This document shows, in pieces, positions 4,531 through 64,000 of a stretch of DNA of 64,000 bases; position 1 is the first letter of the stretch; the number at the start of each line of letters is the position of its first letter. The position numbers and the translations under genes are program-made. Source of the DNA: a virus; IMG/VR virus record IMGVR_UViG_3300031963_009342, positions 39,273 to 103,272 of that record. One strand, given 5' to 3'. Below the pieces are notes generated by a model. The model worked only from the letters and a program-made list of their open reading frames with translations. It was not told the DNA's origin and searched no databases.

Positions 4531-5669
4531 ACGATTTTATTAATTACATCCGCGACATAATCTACTTGTTCCATCGTCATTTCAACATACATAGGAATAG
4601 ATAAGTGTCTAGTTAATAATCCATCGGCGGATTTATATGTTTGATTTTTTGTATATGGTTCAAATACTTTTTGTTGATGACAAGCGGGCCAATAAGCATT
4701 TGCGGTGGGTATATTATATTCTAAATACAATTTTTTACAAAGTTCCGATCTTTCATTTAAAGTAGTAGATTTTGGTAATTCTATAATGTAATGCCACCAT
4801 GTATTTACTATGTTACTTGGTACTTCAACGAATTTTATTTTAGGGTTAACGATTTTTTCTCTATATCTTTTTGCTATTATATTTCTCTTTTCGACAAATT
4901 GATTGGCTCTTTTTAATTGACTGATGCCTAAAGCTGCAACCATTTCGGTCATTTTATAATTTGACGAGATAAATTCACAACTTACTCCAAAATCTACACC
5001 ATTTACTGGAGTTGGATTTCTAACAGCCCCGTGATTTCTAAGTGTTTTGCAAGTTTCTGCGAATTTTTCATCATTGGTGGTGATTATTCCACCTTCACCT
5101 GTTGTTATAATCTTAGTAGCAAATAATGAGAAACAACCGGCATATCCTAAATTTCCTGAATGAATATTATCAATAGTAGAACCAACGGCGTGAGAAGCAT
5201 CTTCAAACAATAAAAGGCCGCGTTCGTCACACAATTTCTTGATGTTATAATAATCAGGTGTGATTAGTCCGGCCATATGAACCAACATTACACCAGCGAC
5301 ATCCGAATCTATAGCTTTTTCTATTATTTCCGCATTCAAACAATGTGTATTTTCATCAATATCGACGATTAATGGAATATTGTTGGATCTTACTATAGCA
5401 CTTACACTAGCTATAAAAGTTTGAGTGGGTACTATGATTTTTTTTCCAACTAAACCAGATGCTCTTAACGCAACTTCTAAACAAGTCCCGCCGGAACAAG
5501 TAGCTATAGCGTATTTAGTACCACAATACTTTGCAAATAAATTTTCAAACTCGGATACATACTTTGATTGTACCAGTGCTTCTGTATTCAGAATGTCTGA
5601 TATTCTTTCTAATATTTCCTTATGATCTTCTTTTGGAATATAAGGTTTTGTTCTTGATAATTTATTCAT
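4527..5669 (-). CDS. DegT/DnrJ/EryC1/StrS PLP-dependent sugar aminotransferase
   Basis: EDASHAVG and FSLFATKIITTGEGG (PLP lysine) motifs. Confidence 0.93.
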   Translation of the reverse strand: MNKLSRTKPYIPKEDHKEILERISDILNTEALVQSKYVSEFENLFAKYCGTKYAIATCSGGTCLEVALRASGLVGKKIIVPTQTFIASVSAIVRSNNIPLIVDIDENTHCLNAEIIEKAIDSDVAGVMLVHMAGLITPDYYNIKKLCDERGLLLFEDASHAVGSTIDNIHSGNLGYAGCFSLFATKIITTGEGGIITTNDEKFAETCKTLRNHGAVRNPTPVNGVDFGVSCEFISSNYKMTEMVAALGISQLKRANQFVEKRNIIAKRYREKIVNPKIKFVEVPSNIVNTWWHYIIELPKSTTLNERSELCKKLYLEYNIPTANAYWPACHQQKVFEPYTKNQTYKSADGLLTRHLSIPMYVEMTMEQVDYVADVINKIV

Positions 5670-6481
5670 AACGTATTTTTAATATAGTCAAAAAATTCTG
5701 GTAGATTTTCTTTTGTACTTGTAAATTTTCTACCTAACTTTAACGGTGATAATAACAAATGTTCATCTATAAATGGAGACATAGTTCCGTTTTCAACGAT
5801 ATTTGCTTTTTTATTTAAAAACTGGCTTATTTCTTCAATAAGTGTTTTTGAACTATAAACATCTTGATTAACAACGTTGTAACTATCTTTTGTATTAAAT
5901 TTATTTGTGGTAGACATTTCTACTAGTAAATCAACTATATCATTGACCCAAATAAAACTCAATAGTTTATTACCAGCTCCAGAAACTTCTACTGGTTTGT
6001 TATTTACTATATTTCTTATATAATAACTCATTCTGGGTCTGGGACAATCTTGACCGACAATGTATGGTGGTCTTATTACCACGTAGTTTGTATCAATACT
6101 TTTGATTATGTTTTCACATTCTGCTTTTTCTACACCATAGTCCCCAAATGCCTTTAATCCTCCAATTGTCATATCTTCATTGTATGATAAACAATTAGAA
6201 TCCTTATAAGCAGCTGCACTACTTATAAAGATATATTTTTGATCGGGTTTTAACCAACTTTTAAGATGTAAAGCTTGAGATGGTTTGAATAAACAAAAAT
6301 CTAAAGTTACATTATAATCATTTTCAATTGTCAGTGGATTGTTTCGGTCAAACTTAATTATTTTTACTTTATCTGGACCAGTGCCAGATCTATTGAGAAC
6401 GGATACACTGGCTAATTTAGTTAACTCATATGCTACTTTTTTTCCAACGAATCTGTTACCACCTATAACCAATATTTTCAT
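5666..6481 (-). CDS. NAD-dependent epimerase/dehydratase (SDR)
   Basis: GGNRFVG, SSAAAY, YGVEK (YxxxK). Confidence 0.85.
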   Translation of the reverse strand: MKILVIGGNRFVGKKVAYELTKLASVSVLNRSGTGPDKVKIIKFDRNNPLTIENDYNVTLDFCLFKPSQALHLKSWLKPDQKYIFISSAAAYKDSNCLSYNEDMTIGGLKAFGDYGVEKAECENIIKSIDTNYVVIRPPYIVGQDCPRPRMSYYIRNIVNNKPVEVSGAGNKLLSFIWVNDIVDLLVEMSTTNKFNTKDSYNVVNQDVYSSKTLIEEISQFLNKKANIVENGTMSPFIDEHLLLSPLKLGRKFTSTKENLPEFFDYIKNTL

Positions 6482-46092: not shown

Positions 46093-46430
46093 TAGAATTT
46101 AGATGATGATAACGGTTCCATTGCAAGATCTACTTCGGTGGATTCATAAAATTTTAAACGTAAAAATTCAGCTCTGTTATGATATCCAGCATTTAATAAT
46201 ACTTTATATGTGTTAACAATTTTTTCTTTACAGTTTTTACGTTTTAAACTTTTAACAAACATTATTGGATTAACATTGAAATCACTGTTTTGTTTTAGAT
46301 TTTTTACTTTATTTTCAATACACCGCGTACACGCTTCTATGTGTGGATCGTCAAATATTTCTTCGTTGATACTAACTGTCATAGACCAGTCTGCCGATTT
46401 TACTAAATATTTGTTATTTTGTTTAGACAT
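46092..46430 (-). CDS. hypothetical protein
   Basis: 112-aa coupled ORF. Confidence 0.6.
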   Translation of the reverse strand: MSKQNNKYLVKSADWSMTVSINEEIFDDPHIEACTRCIENKVKNLKQNSDFNVNPIMFVKSLKRKNCKEKIVNTYKVLLNAGYHNRAEFLRLKFYESTEVDLAMEPLSSSKF

Positions 46431-49047
46431 AATTCATATCTCCATCGTTAAGTAAATCTAAGTTAGCCAACTTTTGATTTACACTATTACACACTTTTTC
46501 TTCGACTGTGCCTGACACAAACACAATCTTCTGTATACTCTTACTCTTCGCACTATCACGCCAAACTCTACCCGTTGCCTGTCTCATATTGACAGCTGAG
46601 TAAGATGGACTAATCAAAGCCAAACGAGGATACTTGCCAGTAACATCGTGTAAACTTAAACCAGCACCACCGGCGGCGAGATTTATTAATATAACCCTTT
46701 GTTTATCTGCCTGAAAATCATCTATGTTTTGTTGACGAGCTTTTGCATATTTAGCTTCACCATTAACAATACACTTAGTGTTTAACCGTTGACTAAGTGC
46801 TTCAATAGTCTCTGAGAAATTTAAAAATACAACAACACTCATGTTGTTTTCTAGAGCTTCTTCTACCATTTCAACAAACAATGGTACTTTAATCATTTCC
46901 ACCGTTTGTCGTGCACGTAATATAGCTGTTAGTTCGTTACTCTTTTTATCTTTCTTTAAAAGTTTTTCAATCTTCAACAATTCAAGTTGCATTTCTTCAT
47001 ATGCTGAATTAATCTTGTCTTGATCTTCTTTTTCCATTTCATAACATTCCGCGATAATTTGACTTTCTGGGAAGTTAGGAATAGTGTCACGATTGAGACG
47101 AACACCTCTATTAACAAATATGTCATTGCTTAATTTCTTTAAAGCATCTATATTACCACGAAACTCCAGTCCGAATCTACCTCTAGTAACACCATGTGCA
47201 TATGCCCATTCGTAATATTGTTTATTATTTTTGAATAGTTGAATACATTGTCCTACAGTACGCAGTTCAAGTGGATTAGTAGCCATGGTAGCACTACAAA
47301 ACAACATCTTGTAACCTTGTTTGAGTGCTGCCATACACATTTCACTGTTTTTGGTTTTGGCATTCTTCAACTTTTGTGCTTCGTCCCATACAATAAGAGT
47401 GTTTTTTGGAATCTTCCAAACGAATTCTTTACGATGGGTATCTCTACGTTTTACATATGAAGCAAACATATTGTCTGTCTTACCTGTACGTAGAGCTTCA
47501 TAGTTGGTAATACCCACACATTTACCCCACATTTTAAAGTGGTTCTTGATAACTCTTTTCCAACTTTCTTTTACTGCTTTAGGACATACTATCATAATGT
47601 CCATATTGAGTTCTCTAGCTACAGCTGTAGCTGTATATGTATTATGAGTTATAGTAAAATCTTCTAAGAGATACCTATTGTTTCCGTCTAATGTAAATCC
47701 AAAATACTCTCCTTTTCCTCTTGGTAAAATTTTAAATCCACTAGATAATACTGATTTTTTTTGTTTTCTGTCGGTAGATTTTTTACGACTTAATAGGATA
47801 GGTAAATCATGTGCGCCTGATATTTGTATTTTATAATAAATTTCTCCGTTTACTCCAAAATTATTATTTTTAGAAATTTTATTAGATTCACTTACTTTAT
47901 ATCCAAGTGATCTAGCTAATTCAATTATATCATTTTTAAGGCGACACCATTTAGTTATTATTCCATAACATCCGTTGGTATCTTTCCATCCATCAGAATC
48001 AATAAGTCCTGCTAATAAGTGTTTTCTGACTACAATGTCGTTTATCAAGAAATCTCTAGGTATAAATTTTTCTCTGTTTATTCCAAAACCATATTTTTTA
48101 AATTCTTGCCACAAATTATTATTGCCTAATTTTTTACTTCTTAAGTAATAGGTATTACAATTATTATTAATACGATCCTTTGATTTATATATTCTGACAT
48201 TCAAATTTAAATTTTTTTCAAAATTATATAAATAATTAATGATTGGTAAATCATCACGATGTGTGGTAATGGATAATGAGTTCCACGTTCCGTCTCCAAT
48301 CCACAATCCCATAAGATATGGTTCAACATTTGTTTTTTTGTATGGATAATTTACAATTGCTCTTCGGAGAGTCCAGTTATGTCTGTTTGTTTTGTATTTA
48401 GACAAAAAATCTTTCACAGATATTTCTATCGTTTGTTTTCTAGCTTTATAATCTAAAACGAGTATATGTTCACTATTACATCCCCATGTTATTCCACCAT
48501 TGGTTGGAACGATTTCATACATTTCGTCTACGCCATTAGCTAATGATAAAACTTTTCTGGAAGTAGAATCATCTCCCATCAGTTTGTCACCCACCACAAT
48601 GTCCTCTACATTTTTGATAGAACCGTCAAACATTCTTATTTTGGTACCTCTAGAATGACATTTTCCTATGCCAACGTCACTTCCATCTACGCCAGCCCCC
48701 CACTTTTTGATCGACGATACTATCTTACTTACCGCGTCAACTTGCCAAGGACGTAATCCGTCTGGATTTTTAACTTCGTAATCCGGAAGCGATTCATCTA
48801 CTTTTTGTTTGGGTTTTTTTGGATCTTTGAATAGGGTGGGATTATCTTTGGTTTCTGTAAGAACCCATTCATTTTCTCTTTTTATTACACCATATCCTTT
48901 GCTCTTTAAAGCAAGTTTGTTTACTTTCCAGTAATTGAAGAATTGGTTTAGGTAAACGGTACCGATTATCCATTCACGTTGAAATGTTACATCGCCATTT
49001 TTTTCTACTTGAACTGGATCTGACCACTTGATATCCAAGTTAATCAT
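46423..49047 (-). CDS. SF2 (SNF2-like) helicase containing an intein
   Basis: LRPWQ, GIGK/T Walker A split by the intein, DEAQ, SAT, AGGAGLSL, QATGRVWR. Confidence 0.9.
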   Translation of the reverse strand: MINLDIKWSDPVQVEKNGDVTFQREWIIGTVYLNQFFNYWKVNKLALKSKGYGVIKRENEWVLTETKDNPTLFKDPKKPKQKVDESLPDYEVKNPDGLRPWQVDAVSKIVSSIKKWGAGVDGSDVGIGKCHSRGTKIRMFDGSIKNVEDIVVGDKLMGDDSTSRKVLSLANGVDEMYEIVPTNGGITWGCNSEHILVLDYKARKQTIEISVKDFLSKYKTNRHNWTLRRAIVNYPYKKTNVEPYLMGLWIGDGTWNSLSITTHRDDLPIINYLYNFEKNLNLNVRIYKSKDRINNNCNTYYLRSKKLGNNNLWQEFKKYGFGINREKFIPRDFLINDIVVRKHLLAGLIDSDGWKDTNGCYGIITKWCRLKNDIIELARSLGYKVSESNKISKNNNFGVNGEIYYKIQISGAHDLPILLSRKKSTDRKQKKSVLSSGFKILPRGKGEYFGFTLDGNNRYLLEDFTITHNTYTATAVARELNMDIMIVCPKAVKESWKRVIKNHFKMWGKCVGITNYEALRTGKTDNMFASYVKRRDTHRKEFVWKIPKNTLIVWDEAQKLKNAKTKNSEMCMAALKQGYKMLFCSATMATNPLELRTVGQCIQLFKNNKQYYEWAYAHGVTRGRFGLEFRGNIDALKKLSNDIFVNRGVRLNRDTIPNFPESQIIAECYEMEKEDQDKINSAYEEMQLELLKIEKLLKKDKKSNELTAILRARQTVEMIKVPLFVEMVEEALENNMSVVVFLNFSETIEALSQRLNTKCIVNGEAKYAKARQQNIDDFQADKQRVILINLAAGGAGLSLHDVTGKYPRLALISPSYSAVNMRQATGRVWRDSAKSKSIQKIVFVSGTVEEKVCNSVNQKLANLDLLNDGDMNYV
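47641..48660 (-). mobile_element. 340-aa intein with LAGLIDADG homing endonuclease
   Basis: Starts CHSRGTKIRMFDG after GK; YLMGLWIGDG and LAGLIDSDG; ends FTITHN followed by extein Thr. Confidence 0.95.
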
Positions 49048-61427: not shown

Positions 61428-61970
61428 ATGAATGTTTTGGATCACTTAAAGTCTTCGTCTGTTGACGATATTAAGACTTATTGTAAGAGTACTAGTATCA
61501 ATGCCGGTGTAGCCATGATGCACGTTAATGGCGACTTTAATCTATCTACGTTGGTTCGAAATGCCAATTTTTTCGGCTTTAAGGAAGCTTTTTATGTTGG
61601 AGGCAGCAAGCAGTGGGATCGTCGTGGTACCGTAGGTACACATCATTATACAGATTTGAAGCACATTAAGACAGAAGAAGATTTTGTATCTTATGTACGG
61701 TTAAACAATTATACTTTGATTGCTATTGAAAATAATATTCCTGAGTATGATAACAAGACGTGTAACCTATTCAGTTATAATTGTTTTGATAGTTCTTGTT
61801 ATCCAATGTTTATTTTTGGCGAAGAAAAGTGCGGTTTGAGTAATTATATGCTTGATCAAAGTGATATGATTATCACTATTCCAGCGTATGGTAGTGTACG
61901 TTCACTTAACGTAGGTACTACTAGTGGCATTGTAATGAGTTTTTATCGCAATTTCGTAGACAACAACTAA
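61428..61970 (+). CDS. SpoU/TrmH-family RNA 2'-O-methyltransferase
   Basis: NLSTLVRNANFFG, IFGEEKCGLS, ITIPAYGSVRSLNV (SPOUT motifs). Confidence 0.9.
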   Translation: MNVLDHLKSSSVDDIKTYCKSTSINAGVAMMHVNGDFNLSTLVRNANFFGFKEAFYVGGSKQWDRRGTVGTHHYTDLKHIKTEEDFVSYVRLNNYTLIAIENNIPEYDNKTCNLFSYNCFDSSCYPMFIFGEEKCGLSNYMLDQSDMIITIPAYGSVRSLNVGTTSGIVMSFYRNFVDNN

Positions 61971-63246: not shown

Positions 63247-63579
63247 ATGGACAGATATATTAACAACAACTTTTTCGGATCCGTAGACGATCTACTAAAT
63301 CATTGTACACACCTAGATGTAGATAAAATTGAACAACAAGTCAAAGCTGAAGAAAAAGAAGAATGTATTCGGGTTATTATGAAAGAACTTGAATGTAATG
63401 AGTTTGAAGCGGGTGTAATCTATAATGAAATTGCCTTGGTAGAAGTTAAAGAAACAGTTGACAAGATGGTAGCAGATGGTCTATTATATATGTCAGGTCA
63501 TACTGAAGATGGAGAACCACTGTTCAGTCTAACTGAGCTTGGTAAAGCTGTTCGTGACAAAATGAATAAAGACAAGTAG
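63247..63579 (+). CDS. hypothetical protein, C-terminal winged-helix-like
   Basis: VDKMVADGLL..FSLTELGK. Confidence 0.6.
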   Translation: MDRYINNNFFGSVDDLLNHCTHLDVDKIEQQVKAEEKEECIRVIMKELECNEFEAGVIYNEIALVEVKETVDKMVADGLLYMSGHTEDGEPLFSLTELGKAVRDKMNKDK

Positions 63580-63593
63580 ATTGTCTAATGCTA

Positions 63594-63674
63594 GCTCCGG
63601 TACTGGCGGGGTCTTCTAAGCCCTAAGTGCATAAATGGATGAAAATGGGGGTTCAAGTCCCTCTCGGAGCGCCA
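63594..63674 (+). tRNA. atypical tRNA-Arg(UCU)-like gene lacking a D-arm
   Basis: Acceptor GCTCCGG/TCGGAGC+G+CCA; anticodon arm GGGGT-CTTCTAA-GCCCT; T-arm GGGGG-TTCAAGT-CCCTC; only TACTGGC between acceptor and anticodon stems. Confidence 0.7.
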
Positions 63675-63741
63675 TTTTTTTGTAATTTATTCAATATATT
63701 TTATATTTATAAGTTACCTCAAAACTTTTGAAAAAAAGTTC

Positions 63742-63781: not shown

Positions 63782-63891
63782 AGTGATGGTTCTTTTAAGC
63801 ATGGTGGGAGAAGCACTCCTCTAGAACATCTACGTATGGCGGAACTGCCTCGGCCTTTAACCGAAGGGGGTCACCAACAAAGAACATCGCT
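63782..63891 (+). ncRNA. candidate structured small RNA
   Basis: Closing helix AGTGATG(G)TTCTTT/AAAGAACATCGCT, inner TGGTGG/TCACCA and several small hairpins; GC-rich versus surroundings. Confidence 0.5.
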
Positions 63892-63892
63892 G

Positions 63893-63920
63893 TTGACAAA
63901 AGAAGAAAATGTGGTAGGAT
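63893..63920 (+). promoter_or_regulatory. sigma70-like promoter TTGACA-N16-TAGGAT with extended -10
   Basis: Consensus -35; GTGG before the -10. Confidence 0.7.
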
Positions 63921-63926
63921 AAAAAA

Positions 63927-64000
63927 GTAACGGAGATGAAACTGAAGTTCATCTTAAAAGAGTGACTAGGAACCGAATCCGTAACTTAGTTCTTTAAAAA
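63927..64000 (+). ncRNA. candidate pseudoknotted RNA or leader (may continue past the window)
   Basis: GATGAA/TTCATC hairpin; GACTAGG/CTTAGTT hairpin whose loop TCCGT complements the 5' ACGGA. Confidence 0.4.

Follow-up and report, generated by a model that had tools for sequence, protein, structure and literature searches.

The window, by which we mean the whole 64,000-nt stretch of DNA that was analysed, has a G+C content of about 30% and is read by us as a T4-like phage contig; it encodes a DNA polymerase matching phrog_262, an endolysin-like domain and many sugar-modifying enzymes, and its SNF2-type helicase gene carries an intein made up of a Hint domain and a LAGLIDADG homing endonuclease (the coordinates of all features are collected in Table 1). 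Neither 600 nt nor 24 kb of the window found a match in the GenBank phage set. Close to the end of the window, an open reading frame of 110 amino acids is followed, 14 nt past its stop codon, by an 81-nt tRNA gene with an unusual order of segments, referred to here as rewired; promoter-like sites precede it, and a terminator scan found no site with a stem plus T-run. AGA makes up 267 of the 527 arginine codons (51%) in the open reading frames of the window, which are also rich in AUA, AAA, GAA and UUA, and this codon usage matches the tRNA set of the cluster. A gene for a SpoU/TrmH-family RNA 2'-O-methylase lies 1.6 kb upstream of the tRNA cluster; a connection of this enzyme with the rewiring was considered and rejected, since the gene is present in relatives with either tRNA-Arg allele.

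When read directly, the element has a 7-bp acceptor stem with a single G-U pair (G7-U71), an encoded CCA after the discriminator G, a 7-nt anticodon loop with the anticodon UCU at 63615-63617, flanked by U33 and a purine, A37, and a canonical T arm with a 5-bp stem (GGGGG/CCCUC) and the loop UUCAAGU, in agreement with the T-loop consensus U54 U55 C56 R57 A58. These parts had been recognized in a first-pass annotation of the same DNA and were found again here, as were the connector of 7 nt (UACUGGC) between acceptor and anticodon stems and the 22 nt, containing AAAUGGAU, between anticodon stem and T stem. The D hairpin that a cloverleaf has at positions 10-25 is absent, with just 7 nt in its place. 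The resemblance that had been noted between the region 3' of the anticodon arm and the D-loop of an ordinary tRNA-Arg can be made exact, as the 8-mers AAATGGAT and AATTGGAT are those of the D-loops of the ordinary tRNA-Arg genes at two related loci, L004 (UUAAAUGGAUAG) and L017 (UCAAUUGGAUAG). In the window, positions 63632-63640 read UAAAUGGAU and positions 63645-63646, directly before the T stem, read AU; we propose that the strand 63632-63646 holds the analogues of U13, A14, A15, 16, 17, G18, G19 and A20, and then of A21 and U48. The bacterial ArgRS identity set is generally given as A20, C35, U or G36 and A or G73 (cf. the review PMC9976931), and in the sequence the putative counterparts of these bases are present at 63639 (an A following G18-G19), 63616 (C35), 63617 (U36) and 63671 (G73).

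Table 1. Features of the window, and loci of family members that carry other anticodons
Feature	Position or loci	Strand	Remarks
SNF2-type helicase gene with intein	46423-49047	-	
SpoU/TrmH-family RNA 2'-O-methylase gene	61428-61970		Pfam PF00588, E = 1.5e-20
Open reading frame, 110 aa	63247-63579		
Promoter-like site TTGACA-18-TATTAT, the stronger one	63458-63487		Consensus scan match only
Promoter-like site GTGACA-17-TAGATT	63554-63582	+	Consensus scan match only; ends 12 nt before the RNA 5' end
Rewired tRNA gene, 81 nt	63594-63674	+	Direct reading
Acceptor stem 5' strand GCUCCGG	63594-63600	+	Pairs with 63664-63670; 7/7 pairs covary, 98.7% of cells paired in 114 relatives
U8, A9, then C10	63601-63603	+	Column counts over 114 relatives
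S1 5' strand UGGC, D-stem-like, analogue of canonical 22-25	63604-63607	+	Covariation
Anticodon arm, stem GGGGU/GCCCU, loop CUUCUAA	63608-63624	+	Direct reading; 5/5 stem pairs covary in the family
AA spacer from anticodon stem to S1 3' strand, putative analogue of variable-loop 44-45	63625-63626	+	Alignment A3, columns 34-36
S1 3' strand GUGCA, G at 63629 bulged, analogue of canonical 10-13	63627-63631	+	Covariation
D-loop-like single strand U-A-A-A-U-G-G-A-U-GAAA-A-U	63632-63646	+	Column counts; 8-mer match to canonical D-loops
T arm	63647-63663	+	Direct reading; stem pairs covary in the family
Acceptor 3' strand UCGGAGC, discriminator G (63671), encoded CCA (63672-63674)	63664-63674	+	Direct reading
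T7 run straight after CCA	63675-63681	+	Homology with L008, a relative with the canonical allele, resumes here
G+C-rich segment of about 110 nt with paired ends	63782-63891		Between two promoter-like sites
Second promoter-like site (TTGACA-16-TAGGAT with TG), then about 60 nt	63893-64000		The 60 nt are absent from L002 here
Rewired tRNA-Arg(UCG)	L133, L159, L146, L129, L092		R1 search of tRNA clusters around UCU members
Rewired tRNA-Arg(ACG)	L098, L071, L110, L163		R1 search, as above
Rewired tRNA-Arg(CCU)	L147, L122, L088		R1 search, as above
Rewired tRNA-Ile(UAU)	L095, L146, L148, L143		R1 search, as above
Rewired tRNA-Ile(GAU)	L102, L073, L127		R1 search, as above

It had been expected that tRNA finders would miss the element, and this is the case: ARAGORN reports no tRNA gene in the whole window, and Rfam returns nothing at its gathering threshold. 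The only match to the Rfam tRNA clan, obtained at a permissive threshold, is to tRNA-Sec, with 21.6 bits, E = 0.16 and the D arm deleted. Minimum free energy folding of the single sequence is unremarkable (z = -1.17), extends the acceptor and anticodon helices and leaves positions 38-53 of the element unpaired; the register of this fold in which 8-11 pair with 33-36 was rejected, as family covariation gives it no support.

Downstream of the rewired gene lies a G+C-rich segment that had no Rfam match even at a permissive threshold. Over the aligned part, its beginning (63782-63800) and the preceding spacer show hardly any difference from L008, and the whole segment is closely similar, by eye, in L002 (L002:~5548-5650); it is likely that the tRNA cluster includes a conserved small RNA at this place. 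In relatives, a tRNA-Lys(UUU) gene is found about 365-380 nt after the Arg gene, and in the genome of the window it should begin just beyond the window end.

Two alleles at one site in close relatives

Close relatives were collected with the 110-aa protein and the SpoU methylase as queries, which gave 27 loci on about 20 IMG/VR contigs. At several of these loci (L001, L004-L007, L008, L017) ARAGORN predicts a tRNA-Arg(UCU) of the ordinary kind immediately downstream of the orthologous 110-aa reading frame, followed by tRNA-Lys, Glu, Met, Ile and Leu, and at others (L002/L015, L003, L013, L014, L026, L018-L022) the rewired allele, with 94-99% identity to the element of the window, occupies the same slot. 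A scan with exact patterns detected the odd form in 12 viral contigs, and it is thus neither unique nor an assembly artefact; its conservation, 94-100% in at least 12 viral contigs, goes far beyond what chance would give; an exact 28-mer of its T arm and acceptor found no match in viral contigs. Across the members of the close clade, only five of the 81 nt are variable (positions 10, 19, 42, 64 and 71), one of these changes turning G7-U71 into G7-C71, and the flanks diverge right outside the acceptor 5' end and after CCAUUU; the closing pair of the anticodon stem is A.G in sister contigs. A contact between positions 10 and 19 (C/U versus A/A in close relatives) was also considered and rejected, since position 10 is C, A or U independently of position 19 in the wider subclass, and the association is probably one of linkage.

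In a tree of SpoU proteins the window is sister to L008, which has the canonical allele (support 99/100, 93% identity), L017 with the canonical allele groups with L014 and L026, both of which have the rewired one, and the alleles are scattered in such a way that at least two allele changes are needed, or four on the best SpoU tree. When the window and L008 are compared pairwise, identity is about 90% in the upstream reading frame and about 95% downstream from CCAUUUUU, and the tRNA bodies (L008:8148-8222 for the canonical gene) share only the anticodon loop and the T loop. Since the flanks are alike and the tRNA body alone is exchanged, the two forms behave as interchangeable cassettes at one locus. 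A normal tRNA-Arg is present at the site in the closest relative, which is one half of what the first-pass annotation had named as speaking against its reading, but the odd form is neither unique nor decaying. As a further feature of this cluster, its tRNA-Ile(UAU) (L001:7346-7439; also in L002, L003, L004, L008, L014, L017 and L018) is 94 nt long and forms a normal cloverleaf, but its variable arm, GCUC-UAGAUUU-GAGC, has a length that is uncommon among Ile tRNAs.

The wider family and the covariation of its helices

Metagenomes were scanned with the pattern CTTCTAA, 11-16 nt, AANTGGAT, 8-13 nt, GTTCRANTCC, which matched at least 120 contigs. Together with the viral loci these matches provide at least 115 distinct family sequences, 114 of which have at least six of the seven acceptor pairs, and CCA is encoded in 65 of 115 sequences among the matches listed. 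The 114 distinct relatives with at least 6/7 acceptor pairs at a fixed offset were aligned with MAFFT (alignment A3), and in every one of them the layout is identical: the acceptor stem is followed by U8-A9, a strand of 3-4 nt, 0-1 nt and the anticodon arm, and then come 2-5 nt, a complementary strand of 3-4 nt, U-A-A-N-U-G-G-A-U, 2-7 nt, A-U and the T arm. The helix formed by the two short strands is called S1 here. For the resulting structure of four helices, 95.5% of the pair cells over the 114 relatives are paired, compared with 62% in shuffles (none of 500 reaching the observed value) and 37-46% when the partners are slid along each other; double changes occur in 18 of the 20 pairs, and RNAalifold returns the same four helices from the alignment alone. 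These compensatory changes in every helix, together with sharply bounded conservation, bear out the earlier view that the element is not a product of random decay.

The statement that the RNA has no D-arm needs to be given up, as connector bases 11-14 pair with bases 34-38 on the 3' side of the anticodon arm and this pairing covaries across the 114 relatives. In the element of the window the pairs 11-38, 12-37, 13-35 and 14-34 form, with the anticodon arm nested inside. In A3 columns, pair 13-41 is CG in 78 sequences, UA in 24, GC in 11 and AU in one, and pair 14-40 is GC in 67, CG in 24, UA in 12 and AU in 11, both without a mispair among the 114; pair 15-39 is paired in 80 of the 114, and its 34 exceptions include 22 G.G, which constitute the subclass of the window, and 11 C.A. 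In that subclass (n = 22) 11-38 is UA throughout, 12-37 is GC in 21 and AU in one, 13-35 is GU in 18 and GC in four, 14-34 is CG in all and G36 is an invariant bulge, so that the subclass has little S1 covariation of its own, namely one double change and four changes from GU to GC. The hairpin CAT-AAATGG-ATG, which had been proposed in the first-pass annotation for the region 3' of the anticodon arm, fares differently from S1: it has no double change or other covariation, its third pair is missing in 82 of the 114 relatives, and it overlaps and competes with S1.

Conservation of single positions has to be read against the search pattern, which fixed CUUCUAA, AANUGGAU and the T-loop, whose invariance within the 114 is consequently no evidence. 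U8 and A9, neither of which was imposed by the pattern, are invariant in 114 of 114 relatives, and the same is true, or nearly true, of U39, A40 and the A-U ahead of the T stem, which the pattern had likewise left free; C10 is variable (C, A or U) and sits opposite the invariant U39. In members with other anticodons the bases at the positions termed 15' and 48' are A/U in 14 cases, G/C in two, U/A in one, G/G in three and A/C in one, with U never opposite G, these being small numbers with the start of the D-loop assigned by hand in four rows. This co-variation may hint at an A15-U48 (Levitt) contact and is suggestive only.

A covariance model built from A3, R1, has the sequence of the window as one of its 114 seeds and gives it, as a seed member, 74.9 bits. 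Family members score at least 43 bits, those outside the seed 43-81 bits, canonical tRNAs at most 34 bits and canonical tRNA-Arg(UCU) 16-23 bits; matches of R1 that lie outside the search pattern argue against the family alignment being an artefact of that pattern. When R1 was applied to the tRNA clusters around the UCU members, rewired tRNAs with other Arg and Ile anticodons were detected (Table 1). A spacer AGAAAG is common to several of the members with other anticodons and to one Arg(UCU) subclass, and because it is shared, a single origin followed by anticodon shifts is suggested. One rewired tRNA-Arg(ACG), L163:2951-3039, is 89 nt long, bears a small extra hairpin in the D-loop-like strand and scores 54.3 bits with R1.

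Family members sit inside phage-type tRNA clusters, where ARAGORN nearly always skips them. Over some rewired tRNAs ARAGORN does make calls, with wrong boundaries or identity (L069:5690-5771; L097:10072-10156; L109:168-261), an example being tRNA-Asp(atc) given for an Arg(UCU) member, and some of the odd tRNA calls met in phage annotations could stem from such errors. At five loci (L050, L102, L104, L109 and L161, about one locus in six) a rewired and a canonical tRNA-Arg(UCU) are both present, and the occurrence of both forms in one phage hints at a role that is not identical to plain decoding. Among prokaryotes, represented by one genome for each of 185,579 species, the same pattern matched 7 contigs only, mostly contigs of metagenome-assembled genomes; one of these matches, a rewired tRNA-Arg(UCU) at 5784-5858, belongs to an array of 25 tRNAs in the cultured Acidobacteriaceae bacterium KBS 96. 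In this array ARAGORN also calls a tRNA with a four-base anticodon (ttgg) at L166:436-512.

BLAST identified members in the cultured phages Agrobacterium phage Atu_ph04, Stenotrophomonas phage SOVA965, Limnohabitans phage DC31 and Sinorhizobium phage Phosso, with no annotated feature beneath any of these matches. R1 confirms those of Atu_ph04 (81.3 bits) and SOVA965 (74.8 bits), both of which have the loop UUUCUAC and so lie outside the search pattern. The SOVA965 member comes after annotated genes for tRNA-Gly, Thr, Leu and Met and for an HNH endonuclease; this HNH homing endonuclease gene is placed directly upstream of the rewired tRNA-Arg and within the tRNA cluster (L168:1455-1991), and enzymes of this type could drive a cassette-like exchange of tRNA alleles.

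The proposed permutation of the core and the readings weighed against it

The rewired layout itself is regarded by us as almost certain. The element of the window is likely to be a working phage tRNA-Arg (anticodon UCU, codon AGA) whose core would be a non-circular permutation of the cloverleaf, a reading in which charging and decoding are predicted. In canonical numbering the order of segments would be 1-9 / 22-25, 26, 27-43, 44-47 / 10-13, 14-21 / 48, 49-76, so that two inner blocks would be swapped with the ends unchanged, as in a non-circular permutation. The strand after U8-A9 would correspond to the 3' strand of the D stem, continuing into the anticodon stem in the manner of canonical 22-25 and 26; the 5' strand of the D stem would be found 3' of the anticodon arm, followed by a normal D-loop (A14 A15 N U G18 G19 A20 ... 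A21), and U48 would lead straight into the T stem, the A-U at this place matching A21 and U48. The secondary structure is then a three-way junction in which the anticodon arm is nested in the D stem. The L shape may nevertheless be kept, as S1 (3-4 pairs plus U.U), the spacer and the 5-bp anticodon stem would add up to about 10 stacked layers, like the normal stack of D and anticodon stems, with G18-G19 presumably docked on the T loop and with predicted contacts U8-A14 and A15-U48. RNase P would cut the 5' end, the host ArgRS would charge the RNA by way of A20 (63639), C35 (63616) and G73 (63671), and AGA would be decoded on the ribosome. The first-pass annotation had described a tRNA with rearranged arms whose elbow may be rebuilt from the variable position, where it saw a likeness to a D-loop, and this part of it has been strengthened by a large covarying family, whereas the D-armless form with an extra hairpin that accompanied it has not stood. 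The likeness to a mitochondrial D-armless tRNA is also set aside, as a helix of D-stem length and a complete D-loop motif are present and conserved.

Among the roles that have been proposed, decoding would appear to fit best, because the rewired form is exchanged as a cassette with the canonical tRNA-Arg(UCU), the ArgRS identity bases are kept and sister forms exist with other Arg and Ile anticodons; such a range of anticodons is expected of a family of decoders and not of a single decoy. It is improbable, in our judgement, that the RNA is a tRNA look-alike which is processed and perhaps charged but acts outside translation, serving a host defence nuclease directed at tRNAs as decoy or sponge, or another tRNA-binding factor as substrate. 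The presence of the rewired form beside a canonical tRNA-Arg(UCU) in some phages does suggest that the two are not redundant, defence and counter-defence around tRNA nucleases are known to be fought out in phage tRNA clusters (PMC13096335, PMC12673091), and permuted tRNA mimics exist in YrlA and the TYMV tRNA-like structure (PMC11472068). In the clade of the window, however, the rewired form stands, as a clean cassette, in place of the sole tRNA-Arg(UCU) that the cluster has, and a pure decoy would need neither U33 and R37, nor A20, C35 and G/A73, nor the six anticodons for two amino acids, all of which are kept. It is more doubtful still that the RNA is truly D-armless in the manner of animal mitochondria, with S1 merely lengthening the anticodon stem and the 22-nt region forming a floppy loop or small hairpin. 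This would agree with the single-sequence fold, in which the acceptor and anticodon helices are extended and 38-53 stay unpaired, and the tertiary contacts of the permuted model are themselves predictions. It agrees poorly with the fact that the supposed loop is the most conserved part of the molecule and reads as a D-loop, in the right order and right after a helix strand, or with the invariance of U8, A9 and the A-U before the T stem, the co-variation of 15' and 48' in the wider set, the canonical stack length maintained by S1 and the anticodon stem, and the CAT/ATG hairpin that is devoid of covariation.

That the element is a decaying tRNA-Arg pseudogene, an attP-type fragment or an assembly artefact can hardly be entertained: tRNA finders reject it and close relatives have a normal gene at the site, as would be expected in that event, but compensatory changes affect every helix among at least 115 distinct versions, the same form recurs in at least 12 viral contigs independent of one another as well as in completed genomes from cultured phages, and its conservation is sharply bounded at its ends. 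Some other explanations were also discarded, namely an attP-like 3' tRNA fragment, as the 5' acceptor strand is present and covaries; an inversion of the inner segment, as the GG motif and U33 both read in the sense direction; and an insertion of intron or BHB type, as the whole RNA is just 81 nt long. As regards the advantage that a core-permuted tRNA may offer, escape from a tRNA-directed nuclease is our leading guess, and it is plausible because some phages keep both forms. A broader proposition is put forward tentatively and with considerable reserve: that these RNAs constitute a second, non-cloverleaf design of working phage tRNAs for Arg and Ile codons, with the anticodon arm nested in the D stem and the L shape kept, and that this design has been retained since its altered backbone path evades or resists host or phage nucleases acting on canonical cores.

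Known tRNA designs and the meaning of a second layout

To our knowledge, all tRNAs except those of a few organelles are taken to share the cloverleaf order of segments. A canonical class I tRNA-Arg(UCU) (RF00005, L008:8148-8222) and the rewired form have in common the 7-bp acceptor, a G or A discriminator, CCA, the 5-bp anticodon stem, the loop CUUCUAA, the UUCRANY T loop, the D-loop motif AAYUGGAU with A20, the genomic slot and the codon demand; they differ in the order of the core segments, in that the rewired D-stem strands flank the anticodon arm and are followed by a D-loop that passes into the T stem, and the rewired form is without a four-way junction and falls below the ARAGORN and Rfam thresholds. 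With animal mitochondrial tRNA-Ser(AGY) it shares the lack of a D hairpin between acceptor and anticodon stems, the short connector and an effectively extended anticodon helix. Animal mitochondrial D-armless tRNAs have lost the contact between D-loop and T-loop and need adapted partners (reviews PMC4394434, PMC7609411), whereas the rewired phage form retains a helix of D-stem length and the full D-loop motif in a new order.

Different threading of the backbone through a tRNA-like L shape, which the rewired form would exemplify as well, is found in the TYMV tRNA-like structure (non-circular) and in the Y RNA YrlA (circular). The TYMV structure can be charged, and both it and the bacterial and phage YrlA are mimics inside larger RNAs without a decoding role (PMC11472068), while the rewired form is a free-standing gene of tRNA size with an anticodon; it is part of a tRNA cluster, and a genuine tRNA is its alternative allele. 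Segments in non-standard order also occur in the circularly permuted tRNA genes of Cyanidioschyzon merolae, whose transcripts are circularised and recut to give a normal tRNA (Soma 2014, as cited in PMC10085705); the phage RNA, by contrast, has its acceptor ends at the 5' and 3' termini from the outset, and the mature RNA must therefore stay permuted. A formal parallel may be drawn with the natural, permuted hammerhead and hairpin ribozymes, a different class of RNA, in which inner blocks are likewise swapped, with the ends unchanged and the positions in three dimensions presumably kept. According to Eckert et al. 2023, no natural RNA with a non-circular permutation had been known before those ribozymes, and tRNAs are not reported there (PMC10085705). 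A review of non-canonical tRNAs mentions neither phages nor permutation (PMC7609411), and a full-text search of openly accessible literature found no description of the rewired phage design.

If the proposed reading is true, a permuted core would be seen here for the first time in a natural tRNA that decodes, and in one that annotation pipelines have systematically missed. Such a blind spot of tRNA finders would mean that phage tRNA counts and analyses of codon supply are biased for AGA, AUA and CGN. It would also follow that ArgRS and IleRS, RNase P, EF-Tu and the ribosome accept a different threading of the backbone, which would provide a natural test of which tertiary contacts define a tRNA and a ready scaffold for the engineering of orthogonal tRNAs. 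In this regard, Agrobacterium phage Atu_ph04, Stenotrophomonas phage SOVA965 and the tRNA array of Acidobacteriaceae KBS 96 are cultured systems that contain members of the family. Should the rewiring guard against tRNA-directed immunity, it would represent a new kind of counter-defence.
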